A DNA stretch of 49,576 bases from sequence record NC_016158.1, one strand, 5' to 3'. Shown here one piece after another: positions 34,927-41,551 of the stretch. The position numbers and the translations under genes were made by a program. Position 1 is the first letter of the stretch. Each line of letters starts with the position of its first letter. The stretch comes from Escherichia phage HK639. The notes under the pieces were generated by a model, which saw only the letters and a list, made by a program, of their open reading frames with translations, made no database searches and was not told the origin of the DNA.

Positions 34927-35325
34927 TTAGTTCATTGGAAGAGAAATTCCAGAAACTCCCGCTTGTGCAAGTAGGGTATCAGCGAAGAATTTAAAATAAG
35001 TTTTCATGAACGACGAAAAATACCATGTATTTTCAATAAGAAACGTTTCATCTACAGTTTTATCTTTTGGATATGTATAGACCATCTTCATATCTATTTT
35101 TAAAGAAAACACTTTTGTAGATTTATCAGGACCATAGCTATCAGCAAAGGGACTGGCATGAACGATAATCACTGATAGATCAGGGTTGGAAAGTAGAGTC
35201 CCGCCAGCCTCAAAATTTAAATCGCCATACTCGAAAGTAACCTCTCCGCCATAAGAGTCTCCTAAGCGCGAAATTGCGCTATTAGTTACTGATGCTTCAA
35301 TGAGTTGCAATTCGCTTAATAGCAT
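34927..35325 (-). CDS. hypothetical protein, third gene of Gp49/HigB-like operon
   Basis: 132 aa; start overlaps stop of upstream HTH gene; AT-rich; no recognisable domain. Confidence 0.5.
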   Translation of the reverse strand: MLLSELQLIEASVTNSAISRLGDSYGGEVTFEYGDLNFEAGGTLLSNPDLSVIIVHASPFADSYGPDKSTKVFSLKIDMKMVYTYPKDKTVDETFLIENTWYFSSFMKTYFKFFADTLLAQAGVSGISLPMN

Positions 35326-35750
35326 TTCGTTTGATATTCCGCATTGCTTGTTTTAATAGTAATTTTAATGGTCTGGCCCGGGTTATCGCTAACATCGGCC
35401 GCTTTCCATGAGAGTCGTTTCATATCTGGAATGATGGCATGCGAGACGTCCACTCCTTCTCTTAATATGACAACTTTCGCCACGGCCCCTAAAGCATAGG
35501 CCATATCAGAAAGGGTTTTGAGAGTCATATTCCGAGTGCCGTCGAGCAGCTGGCTTACATGACCTTTAGATTTACCCAATTTTTTAGCTAGCTCGGACTG
35601 AGAAATGTTCGCGTCCTGCATTGCTAAAAGAAGGTCTTCAGTTGTGTTAAAGATCAAGCGCTCACACGCCATCTCTCGCTCACTAACCTCCGGGAAATCA
35701 AAATTATCATCACTAAACAGATTGTTAGCAATCATCATGGCCTCGCTCAA
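35316..35750 (-). CDS. HTH XRE-family protein (HigA-like antitoxin candidate)
   Basis: HTH segment ISQSELAKKLGKSKGHVSQLLDGTRNMTLKTLSDMAYALG; overlaps upstream toxin-like gene. Confidence 0.65.
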   Translation of the reverse strand: MSEAMMIANNLFSDDNFDFPEVSEREMACERLIFNTTEDLLLAMQDANISQSELAKKLGKSKGHVSQLLDGTRNMTLKTLSDMAYALGAVAKVVILREGVDVSHAIIPDMKRLSWKAADVSDNPGQTIKITIKTSNAEYQTKCY

Positions 35751-36018
35751 TTCTTTCCCAATTATTTTTCACCTTTTGGACATCTGAGTCATCAAGTCGG
35801 TCAAAATCTTTGTATATGTAATGACTAATAAAAATCGTCATATCATGTCTGTCAGACTCCCAGTAGTAACCTCTAATCGGAATCTTCTTTATAGCCCAGA
35901 AATTCTTAGCTGGCTTTCCGTTAAACGATGGCAAAATTCCTTCTTTGCGAACACTCAAGTCAGGCGTCCTTTTGCCAGAAGCCAAGCGCTCAAGTTGCAG
36001 GATGAGTGATATCTGCAT
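35725..36018 (-). CDS. Gp49/HigB-like toxin candidate (RelE/ParE superfamily)
   Basis: Track ORF 35725..36129 begins at non-ATG codon; ATG at 36018 with AGAGG RBS gives 97 aa; C-terminal IPIRGYYWESDRHDMTIFISHYIYKDF fits recalled Gp49/HigB pattern. Confidence 0.5.
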   Translation of the reverse strand: MQISLILQLERLASGKRTPDLSVRKEGILPSFNGKPAKNFWAIKKIPIRGYYWESDRHDMTIFISHYIYKDFDRLDDSDVQKVKNNWERIERGHDDC

Positions 36019-36145
36019 ACTTTTCTGCCTCTTTGCAGGAGTAACGCTTTTCAGCGATTCGCTCAGGGATTTCAATGCTCCCTTACAATGCACTATCCGA
36101 TAACACTCACCCTGTATGGAGCCTTTCAATTTATCACCATCTAAG

Positions 36146-36291: not shown

Positions 36292-36981
36292 TCAAAGCTT
36301 GTTGTAAGCAATGGACTCATGGATCAGCGCCTTACCCATGATGTACAGCTGGTCCTGATTTTCTTCTGTCACATACCAGTCTTTGTACGCCGGGTTATCG
36401 GAAAGTACAGCCAACTGCAGACCCTGCATTTGCAGGCGCTTAACGTGGAAGTGCTGCCCGAAGACAAACGCATACACCCCGTCAACTTTGAAGTTCCTCA
36501 CTGAAACGTCAAAGAAGAGGCGATCGCCAGACTGTATTGTCGGGCACATGCTGTCGCCGTCTACGGTCATCACCTTCACATCATTTTGAGTGCGGTTCCC
36601 GAAAAGAGATCTGGCATGCTCAGTTGTGAACTCAATAGCATGCAGGACCTCAACAAATTCAGAAATCATAAAAGACCCCGGACCAGCGCTTACTTTCAGG
36701 TCTAAAACATCAACCCGAAAGACATCAATTGTTTCCGAGACCGGTTGGGCCGCCGATGGCACATTACCATCAATCCGCATTTCCCCCACTCCAGAACTAA
36801 GCCATTCCGGCCTTACACCCAGAGCATGAGCTAGCTCGACCATCTTACGGCTGCCGCTCGTTTTACCTGATGTCATCTTTTGAATTGCAGGCTGGGATAT
36901 ACCGACTTTATCAGCCAACTGTCCTTGAGATATGTCAGCGGCCGACATAGCCGCGTTCAGTCGTTCTGCAAATGTTTTCAT
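36292..36981 (-). CDS. cI: CI-type prophage repressor (HTH plus S24 peptidase domain)
   Basis: N-terminal HTH QGQLADKVGISQPAIQKMTSGK; C-terminal S24 domain with GDSM motif (VDGDSMCPTI) and conserved Lys region; divergent from cro. Confidence 0.85.
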   Translation of the reverse strand: MKTFAERLNAAMSAADISQGQLADKVGISQPAIQKMTSGKTSGSRKMVELAHALGVRPEWLSSGVGEMRIDGNVPSAAQPVSETIDVFRVDVLDLKVSAGPGSFMISEFVEVLHAIEFTTEHARSLFGNRTQNDVKVMTVDGDSMCPTIQSGDRLFFDVSVRNFKVDGVYAFVFGQHFHVKRLQMQGLQLAVLSDNPAYKDWYVTEENQDQLYIMGKALIHESIAYNKL

Positions 36982-36992
36982 CTTATCAATAT

Positions 36993-37056
36993 ATAACCGA
37001 GGTTATGTAGAGTAAAATAACAAAGGTTATGGACAATGCCCATAACTTGGGTTATC
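36993..37056. promoter_or_regulatory. oR-like operator region with ATAACC/GGTTAT half-sites
   Basis: ATAACC-GA-GGTTAT (36993..37006), lone GGTTAT (37025..37030), ATAAC-TTGG-GTTAT (37043..37055) in the cI-cro intergenic region. Confidence 0.55.
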
Positions 37057-37091
37057 TTTTCATTAATCCAGTAATCGGATAGGTAAAATCC

Positions 37092-37319
37092 ATGAACAAA
37101 GTTATTCAACGAGCTTTAGAAATCGTTGGCAGCCAGAAGCGACTCGCAGATATTTGCGGCGTTAGCCAGCCAGCGGTTCACAAGTGGCTTAACGGTGGTT
37201 CCGTATCTCCGGAAAAAGTAACAGCCATCGTAAACGCTACTGGTGGCGAGATTAAGGCACACGAAATTCGACCTGATCTTCCCGACCTGTTTCCACACCC
37301 AGAGAACCATGCCGCTTAA
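37092..37319 (+). CDS. cro: Cro-like HTH regulator
   Basis: 75 aa; HTH RLADICGVSQPAVHKWLNG; divergent from cI across operator region. Confidence 0.7.
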   Translation: MNKVIQRALEIVGSQKRLADICGVSQPAVHKWLNGGSVSPEKVTAIVNATGGEIKAHEIRPDLPDLFPHPENHAA

Positions 37320-37348
37320 CGGCGGCCCTAACCACGAAAGGGAAAGCA

Positions 37349-37894
37349 ATGCATTCACTTGCGTATCAACAAGGTAACAAATTTTCGCCAACGGCGATGA
37401 TTTACCAGAATCGCCGGGAGCCTGATTCCGCGGCGTTAAACATCGATGGGATTCGCGCAGCGGTTCGCGCCTGGGCAGCTGATTGCCGCAGCCGTGAATT
37501 TGTCGCCGCTCTGATTGTTGAAGAGTGGCGGGCAATCGGCGGCACCGGACTTGATATCCCGACTGACTCACACCGCCAGATGCAGAAGGTGTTCCGCTGG
37601 ATCGACGGGGACACCGAATATGCGGCCAACAACATTCGCCAGCTGGCACCGGCAATCATGGCCGTGCTGCCGCTGGAGTACCGCAACCGCCTGGCACCGC
37701 AGAACGACACGATGTCGCTAATCGCCTCTGCAATGAAAGAGTGTGCCGAGGCTAAACAGGCCGTGCTGCTGGACGCTCCAGAGCATCAGAAGCTGAAAGA
37801 GGTAAGCGAGGGTATAGCGTCGCTGTTCCGCCTCATGCCGGAGCAGGTAGGGCCGTTGATGACGATGGTGACGTCGATGCTGGGGGTTATGTGA
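37349..37894 (+). CDS. CII-like / YdaT-like regulatory protein
   Basis: 181 aa directly after cro; position and size consistent with CII-like family. Confidence 0.5.
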   Translation: MHSLAYQQGNKFSPTAMIYQNRREPDSAALNIDGIRAAVRAWAADCRSREFVAALIVEEWRAIGGTGLDIPTDSHRQMQKVFRWIDGDTEYAANNIRQLAPAIMAVLPLEYRNRLAPQNDTMSLIASAMKECAEAKQAVLLDAPEHQKLKEVSEGIASLFRLMPEQVGPLMTMVTSMLGVM

Positions 37895-37979
37895 GAGGCA
37901 CCAGAAAAGAAAAAGCCCTTGAAGCGGTCACTTCAAAGGCCTTCCAAACACTGTGTTACGCCAAGTAACGGGATTAATT

Positions 37980-38384
37980 ATGGCAGGACAAACAAAGCAA
38001 GTAAACACCGAGCTAAGGGCTGGTGACAGGTTCGAAACTGCATACCCATTTATCTATGTGTGCACAGATTACCAGTCATACGACGGCAACGTGCATACCG
38101 ATGAGCGTTGGATTGGCGGTTGCCACAAAAATTATGAGCCCGCTGACTGTGGGTATGGTGATCAGTGCTTTTACACCGCTGATGCTGAAGGAAAGCGAAT
38201 TCTTGAGGTTTTGGCTGTCGTGGAAATGCCAGGTAATTGGCAGAGAAGAATTATTTACGCCTGTCATCTCATAGAACCTGAAGGTAAGGAGAGGAAAGGC
38301 AGAAAGGCTTACACAGTAACTGAATCCAGATTCTTAAAAATGGCTTCTGGTTATTTTGCAGATTACGAATTGGAGGATGCCTAA
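37980..38384 (+). CDS. hypothetical Cys-rich protein (inserted between cII-like and O-like genes)
   Basis: ORF 37953..38384; 6 Cys plus His in 134 aa (YVCTDY, GGCHKNYEPADCGYGDQCFY, YACH). Confidence 0.45.
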   Translation: MAGQTKQVNTELRAGDRFETAYPFIYVCTDYQSYDGNVHTDERWIGGCHKNYEPADCGYGDQCFYTADAEGKRILEVLAVVEMPGNWQRRIIYACHLIEPEGKERKGRKAYTVTESRFLKMASGYFADYELEDA

Positions 38385-39247
38385 TGGCTCGCTCAAGAAA
38401 CATTAAGCCAGGCTTTTTCACAAATGACGAGCTTGCAGAATGCCAGCCACTGGCGCGCATCCTCTTCGCTGGCTTGTGGACTATCGCCGATAAAGAGGGG
38501 CGCCTGGATGACCGCCCTAAGAAAATTAAAGCCATGGTGCTGCCTTTTGATGATGTCGATTGTGACGCTTTGTTGCAGCAGCTGCATCAGCACAAATTCA
38601 TCAACCGTTACCAGGTAAAAGGCGATTCCTACATTCAAGTTTCTAACTGGAAAAAGCATCAGAACCCGCACTGCAAAGAAGCGGCAAGTGAGATACCAGA
38701 ACCATCTCAGAACCAAAATGGCACCGAACAAGAACAGTGCAATTCAGATGCAAAAGAGGAAAAGGAAGAAGAGGGAAAGCCTCAAGTAATTGAAAATAAT
38801 GAAGCACAAGAAAAGCACGGTGCTAGTAAGGTGCAAGAACAGGTTAAGAACAGTTTAAATCCTGCTGATTCCCTTAACCTGATTCCTGATTCCCCTATCC
38901 CTGATCCGGATTCCTTGGTTAACACCCAAGCCGCTGACGCGTCTTGCGAAGAGGCCAATGCAGATATTCATGAAATATCGAGTCGGTACGCATTCGAGGG
39001 CCAGATCGTACGGCTGAACCACAAGGACTACCAGGCATGGTTAAGCCTGTACCCGCTGATAGACCTGAATTACGAGCTTCAGAAGCTGGATATCGAGTTC
39101 ACTCATGAGAAGCCAAAAAATTGGTTTATCACTGCCAGCCAGAAGCTGAGTTATCAGAACAAGCAAGCGGCAGTGCGCTGCAAACCAGCCGCTAAGCCGG
39201 ATCTGGACTTCAACAACACCGACTGGGCTTATGGGGTGATTCGATGA
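38384..39247 (+). CDS. replication initiator (O-like, replisome organiser)
   Basis: 287 aa; immediately upstream of lambda P-like gene; contains internal iteron-like repeats; acidic linker. Confidence 0.65.
   Translation: MARSRNIKPGFFTNDELAECQPLARILFAGLWTIADKEGRLDDRPKKIKAMVLPFDDVDCDALLQQLHQHKFINRYQVKGDSYIQVSNWKKHQNPHCKEAASEIPEPSQNQNGTEQEQCNSDAKEEKEEEGKPQVIENNEAQEKHGASKVQEQVKNSLNPADSLNLIPDSPIPDPDSLVNTQAADASCEEANADIHEISSRYAFEGQIVRLNHKDYQAWLSLYPLIDLNYELQKLDIEFTHEKPKNWFITASQKLSYQNKQAAVRCKPAAKPDLDFNNTDWAYGVIR
38859..38926 (+). repeat. iteron-like direct repeats (candidate ori) inside O-like gene
   Basis: Four copies of CTGATTCC-like motif: CCTGCTGATTCCC, CCTGATTCC, TGATTCCCC, CCGGATTCC. Confidence 0.5.
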
Positions 39248-39933
39248 AATCTCTTGCAGAGCAGATGCGTAACCACGACCGCGAGCAGATGAGCCGCATG
39301 GCCCATAACCTGCCAGAGCAGTACCAGGAGCGTGCGCCGGTCGAACAAGTGGCGCAGGTATTCAACAAGCTGTTCAACGAGCTGCGCGCCGCTTTCCCGG
39401 CCAGTATGGCAAACTTCCGCACCCAGGATGACCTGAACGAATTCCGCCGTCAGTGGCTGCTGGCGTTTCAGGAGAACGGGATCCACACCATGGCTCAGGT
39501 CGATGCCGGCATGCGTGTAGCTCGCCGCCAGGAGCGTCCATTCCTGCCGTCTCCGGGCCAGTTCGTCGCCTGGTGCAAACAGAGCGGCGGCGCGCTGGGT
39601 ATCACCGTTGACCAGGTGATCACCGAATACTGGGACTGGCGTAATCGTTCGTTCGAATTCACCTCTAGCGAGCAATTTCCCTGGTCTCAGCCGGTCATGT
39701 ACCACATCTGCGTAGAACTGCGCCACCGCAGCACTGAGCGCCAGTTAACGCATGGTGAGCTGTCGCGCGAAGCAGGCGACCTGCTGGACATGTGGGAGAA
39801 GCGAGTCATGGAGGGTAAGCCAGTGCCGCCGGTACGCCGGGCAATTGCAGCGCCTGCCGCAGAGCATGGGCCTACGCCGATCCAGCTGCTCCAGGCGAAG
39901 TACAACCGCAACAAATCGAACGGGATGGTGTGA
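39244..39933 (+). CDS. P: replication protein P (DnaB helicase loader)
   Basis: Strong resemblance to recalled lambda P: MKSLAEQMRNHDREQMSRMAHNLPEQY..., RRQWLLAFQENGI, AGMRVARRQERPFLPSPGQFVAWC. Confidence 0.85.
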   Translation: MKSLAEQMRNHDREQMSRMAHNLPEQYQERAPVEQVAQVFNKLFNELRAAFPASMANFRTQDDLNEFRRQWLLAFQENGIHTMAQVDAGMRVARRQERPFLPSPGQFVAWCKQSGGALGITVDQVITEYWDWRNRSFEFTSSEQFPWSQPVMYHICVELRHRSTERQLTHGELSREAGDLLDMWEKRVMEGKPVPPVRRAIAAPAAEHGPTPIQLLQAKYNRNKSNGMV

Positions 39934-39934
39934 G

Positions 39935-40279
39935 ATGACCATAACAATCCGTGGGCAGATTCTTGCAGCCCTGCGTAATAACCCGGGCCTGAGCAGTGCT
40001 CGCATTGCCACCATGATCGGCATGACCACCAAAAAGATTTCCGGCCCGCTAAGCACATTGTTTGCAGACGGCCTGATCGAGTTCGAAGGCAAGCACGGCC
40101 AGCGGCTTTATCGGCTGACAAGCTACGGCATGAAATACGCACCGGAAACCATACCGGCCATGCCGAAGGGAAATTCGAAGCTGGTGCAGCGCACAGAGGC
40201 AAACGTGACCTGCCAGGAGTGCCGCAACAGTCCGGCGATGAGAAGGGTATTGATGGTTTGGGGGAGGGTAGGGGGATGA
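39935..40279 (+). CDS. hypothetical winged-helix-like protein
   Basis: ORF 39752..40279; start at ATG 39935 just after P stop; 114 aa. Confidence 0.45.
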   Translation: MTITIRGQILAALRNNPGLSSARIATMIGMTTKKISGPLSTLFADGLIEFEGKHGQRLYRLTSYGMKYAPETIPAMPKGNSKLVQRTEANVTCQECRNSPAMRRVLMVWGRVGG

Positions 40280-40815
40280 AATTATTTGAGATGGAAGGTT
40301 TTCTCCGTGGCAAGTGCATTCCACGCGATGTGAAGGTTAACGAAACCAACGCCGAGTATCTTGTGCGTAAATTTGCCGAAGCAGATGCCATGTGCGCGGC
40401 GCTGGCTGCGGAGAATGCGGGGCTGAAGGCGGTGTGTGAAGACCGTCGCGCGTTCATCATGAATGGGGTTCAGCTGGGTTATATCCAGGTTCCGACAGTG
40501 GAAACAGACCCGGCACTTGAAACCATTCGCGTTGCTGTGTCACCCCAAGAGCCAACCCCAGCAACCGACGCTTTCCTGGCTGAAGTGCGGGCTCAGGGTG
40601 TGGAAGAGTTTCTGAGAGATAGCCAATTACCTTATCAAATTGCAACTGTGTTGGCTGATTACGACGACGTCGATGATGCAACGCTCCAGACCGTTATTTG
40701 GTCTGGGCAGCCGCCAGAGCCTGATGGCGACGTTTGGCACCTCGAATATGTGTCTCGCGGTAACGCAATTGTGCGCGCTGTTTTGAAGGAGCTTCGCAAA
40801 GGAGTGCAGTCATGA
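40276..40815 (+). CDS. hypothetical protein
   Basis: ORF 40219..40815; start at ATG 40276 after GGGGG RBS. Confidence 0.45.
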   Translation: MKLFEMEGFLRGKCIPRDVKVNETNAEYLVRKFAEADAMCAALAAENAGLKAVCEDRRAFIMNGVQLGYIQVPTVETDPALETIRVAVSPQEPTPATDAFLAEVRAQGVEEFLRDSQLPYQIATVLADYDDVDDATLQTVIWSGQPPEPDGDVWHLEYVSRGNAIVRAVLKELRKGVQS

Positions 40816-41042
40816 GACTGAAAATGCACACGCCAGACGGATCGGTGATTGTCGAAAGTAACCTGGTAACGCAGTTTTACCCTGATTTCGAAAGCGGCGG
40901 CGAGCTGACCACCATCGAAACGGTATCGGCCACAGGAGAAACTTTCTCGGTGAAAGTAAAGCACTCGTTTATGCAGGTGACTGGAGCACTGGCTACAGCC
41001 TGGAGCGTTGACGAGAAGAAAGCAACAAGGGGCGCCCAATGA
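40812..41042 (+). CDS. hypothetical protein
   Basis: 76 aa, overlapping stop/start packing. Confidence 0.4.
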   Translation: MRLKMHTPDGSVIVESNLVTQFYPDFESGGELTTIETVSATGETFSVKVKHSFMQVTGALATAWSVDEKKATRGAQ

Positions 41043-41551
41043 GCAACATCGACAAACATGCCGTCCAAGCAGTTGCCGATTTGAAAGCTGGTTACACCCT
41101 CGGTCACGCTGATGTGGCAATCCTGAACGAGCTGGCGCGTATAGCACTGGCATCGCTCGAAGTGGAGGCTGTGGCGTGGCTACTGTCAGGCGGCGGCGCA
41201 AAAAACAACGTCAGCTTCGATAGTGGCAATGCTTATGCCGACCCGCTGCGAGAAGTAACGCCGCTTTACACCGCCCCGCCAGCGCCGGTATCTGTGCCCG
41301 CTGCGATGGAAATGGATGATGACTTTGACAGCGCGTTTGAACACGGAAAAGCTGTCGGCTGGAACGCCTATCGCGCAGCCATGCTTCAGTCGTTCGGTAA
41401 TTCCGAACAACTCAACTCTCCGGTGATTCCGGATGGTTGGGTGCTGGTGCCAGAAGAACCCACCCATGAAATGCTTGAGGCTGGTGATGAACAATTCGGA
41501 ACTTACGATGTGTATCGCCGGATGATAGCAGCATCACCGCAGCAGAAGTGA
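41039..41551 (+). CDS. hypothetical protein
   Basis: 170 aa, overlapping stop/start packing. Confidence 0.45.
   Translation: MSNIDKHAVQAVADLKAGYTLGHADVAILNELARIALASLEVEAVAWLLSGGGAKNNVSFDSGNAYADPLREVTPLYTAPPAPVSVPAAMEMDDDFDSAFEHGKAVGWNAYRAAMLQSFGNSEQLNSPVIPDGWVLVPEEPTHEMLEAGDEQFGTYDVYRRMIAASPQQK

Follow-up and report, generated by a model that had tools for sequence, protein, structure and literature searches.

The junction between cII and the replication genes has been described in phages lambda and phi80. In lambda, the -10 box of the leftward pO promoter overlaps the start codon of the initiator gene and the -35 box lies about 20 nucleotides (nt) inside that gene. In phi80, the -35 box (TTGATT) lies in gene 15, the lambda-O-like replication initiator, and the small M3 RNA of the junction is annotated as 'homolog of lambda oop RNA'. 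Small, dispensable and sporadic genes that are co-transcribed with the replication genes are also known, such as lambda ren, the nin-region genes, and the P22-type orf48/DUF2740 gene between c1 and gene 18. Our subject is an open reading frame (ORF) at positions 37980-38384 of the plus strand in Escherichia phage HK639 (NC_016158.1; its 49,576 nt are the whole stretch of DNA that was analysed, called the window below). It is a gene of the same general sort, although it has no sequence or profile similarity to ren, the nin-region genes or DUF2740.

The ORF is an uncharacterised, optional cargo gene, set at one of the mosaic junctions in the early operon of lambdoid phages. GenBank annotates the gene as hypothetical, PHROGs groups it without a function, and we found nothing in the literature on its family, phrog_30464, or on this HK639 gene. 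Two results are new. The ORF is not a core replication gene, and its Cys and His residues are not a conserved zinc site. In addition, judging by the alignments, the two ends of the gene double as the -35 box of an oop-type promoter and as the ribosome-binding site (RBS) of the initiator.

We are highly confident in the anatomy taken jointly, which is that of a genuine phrog_30464 protein in an optional cassette of the pR operon, with a reused start codon, coupling to the initiator, a leader that contains a -35 box, and expression from pR only. For the whole of our best explanation, anatomy and function together, we estimate a probability of roughly 0.45. The function that we favour, tentatively and at somewhat less than even odds, is that of an optional early binding protein for host takeover or anti-defence.

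The gene, its start and its two ends

In the arrangement that we propose, the pR operon would read cro, cII, the ORF, the replication initiator and a P-type helicase loader. The features of the ORF and of its two ends are as follows.

37980-38384, plus strand: the ORF, 134 amino acids, family phrog_30464, with an ATG start and the stop codon TAA at 38382-38384
37980-38009, plus strand: N-terminal leader MAGQTKQVNT (residues 1-10), predicted to be disordered and absent from variants of the nin type
37968-37973, plus strand: Shine-Dalgarno-like ACGGGA, 6 nt before the ATG
37910-37969, minus strand: predicted oop/M3-like small antisense RNA with an intrinsic terminator, identical to the phi80 M3 RNA at 53 of 60 positions
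37977-38005, minus strand: leftward pO-type promoter-like site, with -35 TTTACT (38005-38000), a 17-nt spacer and an extended -10 TGcCATAAT (37982-37977)
38372-38386, plus strand: predicted coupling junction to the initiator, made up of GGAGG (38372-38376) and a TAATG stop/start overlap (38382-38386)

A preliminary description of this DNA, made from the letters alone, had placed a protein of 134-143 residues between a cII-like gene and the replication genes. That gene is real. It matches phrog_30464 with an E-value of 3.8e-95 (316 bits; residues 1-134 align to the full 134 positions of the profile), and all 57 of the superfamily members tested match this family too; it has a confident predicted fold (discussed below); and the ratio of nonsynonymous to synonymous substitution (dN/dS) has a median of 0.07 across 278 homologous gene pairs. 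Given this value for the main frame, the overlapping reading frames at 38023-38274 (plus strand), 38076-38267 and 38269-38535 (both minus strand) are not credible. The protein is acidic, with an isoelectric point of 5.1 and a net charge of -6, and an identical protein is recorded as ADO67736.1 (Escherichia phage HK639) and also under a multi-species entry for Enterobacter. The upstream gene is indeed a cII-type activator, and we can now assign it more exactly to the YdaT family.

The ORF list also offers a GTG start at 37953, which would give a protein of 143 residues. On the comparative evidence the true start is the ATG at 37980, because all of the close homologues begin at that ATG, because the phrog_30464 profile aligns from its first position to residue 1, and because the nine extra codons of the GTG form fall in sequence that is non-coding in phi80, where they correspond to the region of the M3 RNA. 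We therefore kept the 134-residue form and dropped the 143-residue one.

Among annotated phages in the collection that was searched, Enterobacter phages and phi80 come closest to the window. The window and phi80 are nearly identical as far as the ATG, over a stretch that takes in the 3' end of cII, the M3 RNA and its terminator, and the RBS, and they diverge right after the ATG. Since the match ends at the ATG, the ORF begins at the start codon of gene 15, and in the alignment gene 15 uses the same translation-initiation region and start codon as the ORF. Translation of the ORF would thus begin at the start codon and RBS that serve the initiator in phi80 and lambda. What differs from both phages is that the ATG here opens a 134-residue ORF and not the initiator, which has been pushed downstream and is, by prediction, translationally coupled. 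In many other loci the sequence upstream of the ORF homologue (actggatcaattcacaggagtaattATG) is homologous to the lambda cII-O spacer (actggatctatcaacaggagtcattATG). The weak RBS of the preliminary description is the GGGA 6 nt before the ATG, a place where most homologous loci have AGGAG.

The junction also appears to carry leftward signals. On the minus strand, a 16-bp stem (37945-37910) followed by a T run forms a terminator-like site, and related loci show a comparable hairpin and T run (26 of 46 in a strict scan). Rfam gave no family match around the junction, and it has no model for an oop/M3-like RNA. The leftward promoter-like site is the sole one in a scan of 37300-38700. Its -10 box contains the ATG of the ORF and its -35 box is made by the leader codons Q7-V8-N9 (cAA GTA AAc), so that the geometry is that of lambda; in phi80 the corresponding box belongs to gene 15, whereas here it is encoded by the ORF leader. 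We found an equivalent leftward promoter in 45 of 46 distinct loci of the cII-junction type, as opposed to none of the 22 loci of the nin type, and in loci of the Yersinia type the two boxes are displaced jointly, so that their spacing is unchanged. Consensus, homology and conservation together make us infer both the leftward promoter and the antisense RNA.

Codon usage points to the same two ends of the gene. We compared 83 conserved degenerate columns across 43 distinct genes of the junction type, and the commonest codon in a column has a median share of 64%. Only two columns reach 95% for a single codon, V8 (GTA, 100%) and E132 (GAG, 95%). V8 lies in the -35 box and is flanked by Q7 (CAA, 94%) and N9 (AAC, 94%). 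The codon of E132 belongs to the GGAGG that lies 7 nt before the ATG of the initiator. We believe that the disordered leader is conserved because of the DNA-level constraint from the -35 box, and the C-terminal codons because the RBS of the initiator lies there. Ribosomes would pass from the ORF to the initiator by way of this internal GGAGG and the TAATG overlap, and in most junction-type loci the stop and start codons overlap by 1 or 4 nt. The first ten codons of one short optional gene would thus contribute to the promoter of an antisense RNA, its last codons would include the RBS of an essential downstream gene, and synonymous freezing marks exactly those two ends.

No rightward promoter or rightward terminator was found in the scan of 37300-38700, so the ORF should be expressed from pR alone, along with cII and the replication genes. 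By this prediction the protein would be made soon after infection or upon induction and would be absent from the lysogen.

Distribution and mobility of the ORF

From its distribution, the ORF is an optional, non-core gene at the cII-replication junction. A megablast search with 36900-39300 covered 5,426 complete E. coli genomes as well as 50,697 phage records. There were many matches to the flanks and none that spanned 37986-38383. The DNA of the ORF is present in two of the 5,426 E. coli genomes, compared with 189 that have its flanks, and in three phage isolates. Phages phi80 and HK225 and E. coli XJ55 have the flanks without the ORF; in XJ55 the YdaT-type cII is followed by an 85-nt gap, as here, and then directly by the replication gene. 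The ORF is also missing from most E. coli prophages that have this cII. As these phages and prophages pass straight from the cII/oop-like region into a replication gene, with that same gap of 85 nt, the preliminary description was right to call the ORF an extra gene at this point. We found no ORF homologue among 72,556 plasmid records, and so no leading-region anti-defence context.

For the analysis of neighbours we collected 86 related loci. In approximately 56 of them the ORF homologue comes immediately after cII. The cII gene of these junction loci is of the lambda type (PF05269) in 40 cases, of the YdaT type in nine and of a third type in three. The initiators that follow fall into at least seven clusters, and their partners are of the P type, the DnaC/IstB type or the primase type. 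There are ORFs that are 91-100% identical to one another and yet are paired with different cII genes and different initiators, and we therefore believe that the ORF moves as a mosaic module of its own. In approximately 30 further loci, mostly from Klebsiella phages, a variant of 131 residues that lacks the first ten or so residues resides in the nin region itself. The order in these nin-type loci is CI, Cro, O, P, a MarR/Ren-like gene, the ORF variant and NinG, and the variant overlaps both of its neighbours.

A core replication gene would be universally present and tied to one replication system, and the ORF is absent from relatives and stands before at least seven initiator clusters. It also has no match to a replication family in Pfam, PHROG or NCBIfam, while its neighbours match such families clearly. 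Comparison of the junction across phages, which the preliminary description had proposed as a check, thus shows a sporadic and mobile ORF without core status or a known replication function. What this means for the mosaic design of these phages is that a cassette can enter between cII and the initiator and leave oop-type regulation and translation of the initiator undisturbed.

More distant members of the family come from contigs of phages that infect proteobacteria and cyanobacteria, where they lie in arrays of small early genes. Their neighbours include YqaJ, RecT, ERF, bet/exo, AAA_24, DnaB, primase and RadC. There is one exception, a distant member that sits among structural-looking genes. 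The source records name family members 'hypothetical protein', apart from a cyanophage member that is annotated as 'SH3 protein'. One metagenomic member of 280 residues (P0072) has the family domain fused to an N-terminal DUF3850/ASCH domain. The fold of DUF3850/ASCH is PUA-like and of a type that binds RNA. The N-terminal extensions of other long members are unrelated and lack annotation. The fusions in the long members may come from gene calling and we consider them uninformative.

Fold and possible functions of the protein

AlphaFold2 predicted the same topology from two alignments, with a predicted local distance difference test score (pLDDT) of 83.4 from 20 sequences, and a pLDDT of 93.9 and a predicted template modelling score of 0.80 from 57 diverse sequences. 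Both models are all-beta with one short helix: strands at 17-32, 38-46, 49-54, 61-67, 69-81/82, 89/90-98 and 110-114, and a helix at 115-122. Residues 1-10 are of low confidence in both (pLDDT 43 and 63).

The family is large. A word-indexed search of 5.8 billion proteins returned 25 close clusters, from Enterobacter, Klebsiella, Hafnia, Superficieibacter, Pantoea and Yersinia, and an exhaustive HMMER profile search returned 143 clusters at 50% identity with E-values up to 1e-3, of which 35 were at or below 1e-10. In the 57-sequence superfamily alignment P23, G47, G71 and R90 are invariant, G15, F24, W44, P100 and G102 are nearly so, and Y22, A67, V77, P84, V91, D101, T114, F118, Y129 and E130 are at least 70% conserved. 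Conservation of Gly, Pro and aromatic residues together with a single invariant Arg, and with no invariant acidic, His or Cys residue, leads us to favour a binding module over an enzyme.

Database searches gave the family no name. The ORF has no match in Pfam or NCBIfam, and neither the ORF nor five distant members matched PADLOC at E-values up to 0.1. A permissive Pfam scan of the 57 superfamily members, with E-values up to 10, found no recurring weak family and no enzyme family. A profile search of PDB sequences returned a chance match only (E 0.35), Foldseek against the PDB gave no match with an E-value below 0.1 and did not match any solved anti-defence fold, and a search of the predicted viral structures in BFVD gave no significant match, the one return being an unnamed viral protein.

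The protein would then be a non-enzymatic binding module with a compact beta structure. Its target would be a host factor or a small ligand, bound early in infection in a way that favours or protects replication or recombination of the phage DNA, and the protein would not itself be part of the replication machinery. A role in host takeover or anti-defence fits the sporadic distribution, the two positions in the pR operon, the independence from any one cII or initiator, the restriction to phages, and the acidity. Many of the anti-defence and host-takeover proteins discovered recently share the profile of a phage-restricted gene under purifying selection, with an early transcript, a confident fold and no structural relative, and the value of the ORF is as a lead for a functional screen on these grounds. 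A bolder version of this explanation, which we think somewhat unlikely, is that the ORF is the founding member of a widespread early phage family, with a beta fold that has no solved relative, which binds and neutralises a host defence factor or a DNA-metabolism factor. In that case its more than 140 clusters at 50% identity, from phages of enterobacteria, other proteobacteria and cyanobacteria, would make up an anti-defence or host-takeover family that is new and whose fold has not been seen before.

Several points weigh against what we favour. No homology or fold match points to a function, and the promoter and the small RNA are predicted from homology and consensus. A helper in DNA metabolism would be just as good an explanation for the tight translational coupling to the initiator at most junction loci, and for the replication and recombination genes that recur nearby. 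The preliminary description had argued that insertions at this junction often encode host-takeover or anti-defence proteins, and the other occupants that we found do not bear this out. They are an HNH endonuclease in phage Louie, a GIY-YIG nuclease in E. coli OW1E2, a T5orf172 gene in a Yersinia locus (L006) and a 48-residue DUF2740 gene in E. coli MS 115-1, the last two adjoining an ORF homologue. These are homing-type nucleases and DUF2740, with no known anti-defence gene among them.

Among the alternatives, the one that survives best has the ORF as a DNA-binding accessory of replication or recombination, a small beta protein that binds single-stranded or other DNA in the manner of PC4 or SSB and that would aid initiation, shield replication intermediates or support the recombination module. 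The stop/start overlap with the initiator speaks for it, as does the company that distant members keep (YqaJ, RecT, ERF, bet/exo, AAA_24, DnaB and primase), and the member fused to DUF3850/ASCH carries a domain of a nucleic-acid-binding type. A basic loop (KERKGRK, residues 102-108), the invariant R90 and the conserved aromatic residues are also what such a protein might use. The weak Foldseek matches were mostly to PC4 C-terminal domains (probability 0.9, E 0.17, over approximately 50 residues) and to the OB folds of SSB and PriB. The C-terminal half of the ORF protein is beta-beta-beta-beta-alpha, like the PC4/Whirly-type ssDNA-binding domain found in human PC4 (its C-terminal domain) and in the PC4-like protein of phage T5, and its DP(D/E)G turn followed by the basic loop resembles DPEGEMKPGRKG of PC4. 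This DPEG and basic-loop likeness to human PC4, whose sequence we verified in the PDB, was rejected as evidence of homology and kept as a lead only, with an hhalign probability of 2% for the family profile against the human PC4 C-terminal domain. That low value also tells against the accessory role itself, and so do the acidity of the protein as a whole, the lack of a dedicated replication partner (at least seven initiator clusters, and copies in the nin region), and the near-identical phages that replicate without the ORF. We consider this explanation distinctly unlikely.

The recombination-module neighbours also made us think of a Gam-like anti-RecBCD role. This is unlikely, as HK639 has been reported to carry two anti-RecBCD genes already (PMC12315714).

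There is a slim chance that the ORF is selfish cargo linked to homing, either a small nuclease or the helper or immunity partner of one. The HNH, GIY-YIG and T5orf172 genes described above have the same insertion point as the ORF, after cII/oop and before the same initiator family, and several close loci have an HNH domain inside the adjacent initiator. The ORF differs from these endonucleases in having no nuclease motif or family match, even at E-values up to 10 for the family domain of the 57 members, and its conserved residues look structural and not catalytic, with no invariant His, Asp or Glu. Most ORF loci have no nuclease nearby, and strong purifying selection across very distant phages would be unusual for a purely selfish passenger.

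The preliminary description had stressed clustered Cys and His residues, and a zinc- or metal-binding regulatory protein is the explanation that follows from them. The residues are there: five Cys (C28, C48, C57, C63 and C95) and three His (H39, H49 and H96), of which C48-H49 and C95-H96 are neighbouring pairs. All 20 of the close relatives compared have C48 and C95, and 18 of them (90%) have C57. However, H49 and H96 vary even among these relatives, and the ORF protein has no CxxC, CxxH or HxxH spacing. Of the 57 aligned superfamily members, 36 have Cys at position 48 and 29 have Arg at position 95; C57 is not conserved, and no ligand pattern co-occurs across the members. No zinc-finger family in Pfam matched, even at E-values up to 10, and the confident beta fold, as modelled, would not need a metal. 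The alignments therefore do not support a metal site that defines the family, and the clustering of the preliminary description stands as a feature of composition and not as a conserved site. A three-Cys site specific to the close clade may exist. A zinc-binding regulator is very improbable, and in annotation the Cys/His content should not be taken as a zinc finger.

Lambda cIII inhibits the FtsH protease, and one could imagine that the ORF likewise modulates the choice between lysis and lysogeny by acting on the stability or activity of cII, for example by inhibiting FtsH. Its place directly after cII in approximately 56 loci would suit such a role, since it shares the cII transcript and the oop-type antisense region. 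We find this hard to credit, because the ORF pairs with the unrelated YdaT-type and lambda-type cII families, and because the nin-region variant and the distant homologues have no adjacent cII.

The weakest explanation, that the ORF is a mere spacer with a functionless product, kept for the pO -35 box and the initiator RBS, has in its favour the synonymous freezing at both ends, where DNA or RNA signals overlap the coding sequence, and is effectively refuted by the gene-wide dN/dS of 0.07 and the confident fold, by nin-region variants that retain the protein without the promoter leader, by distant homologues in unrelated phages, and by phi80 and lambda, which have the same signals without the ORF.

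Neighbouring genes and side observations

The genes on either side of the ORF were identified as follows.

36292-36981, minus strand: S24/LexA-type CI repressor (Pfam and PHROG)
37092-37319, plus strand: YdaS/Cro-type gene (Pfam and PHROG)
37349-37894, plus strand: YdaT-family cII-type activator, 181 amino acids (PF06254 at 2.2e-27; phrog_163, 'CII-like transcriptional activator', at 9e-57)
38384-39247, plus strand: replication initiator, 287 amino acids (phrog_17247, phrog_16167 and phrog_12556, 'replication initiation protein')
approximately 38865-38910: iteron-like CTGATTCC repeats inside the initiator gene
39244-39933, plus strand: lambda-P-type helicase loader, 229 amino acids (PF06992 at 3.5e-50; phrog_109)

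The iteron-like repeats are presumably the origin. A 57-nt stretch of the initiator gene, at 38858-38914, has approximately 91% identity to Vibrio phage records and also matches Acinetobacter phage records. Conservation across genera to this degree looks odd.

The slot between cII/oop and the initiator is a hotspot for the varied cargo described above. In Citrobacter sp. OP27 (L085) and in loci L010, L011 and L016, the initiator is 337-345 residues long, compared with 287 in the window. The longer proteins have approximately 58 extra residues with an HNH motif (CNYCGS...DHILPVSKGGNS...NLQVLCKQCN), and it appears from these sequences that an HNH nuclease domain has been inserted inside the initiator in all four.

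Beyond cI, and in its orientation, come three genes at 34927-36129 (minus strand), in the place of lambda rexAB. They encode a protein of 133 residues with no Pfam match, a 143-residue HTH_3 protein, and a protein of 131 residues with no Pfam match. This set could be a toxin-antitoxin or exclusion module that is expressed from the prophage.

On the other side, the P-type loader is followed by a MarR/winged-helix protein at the position of ren and then by several proteins without a Pfam match (39752-40279 and 40219-41551, plus strand). These genes resemble the variable nin-region neighbours of the Klebsiella-type variant of the ORF.

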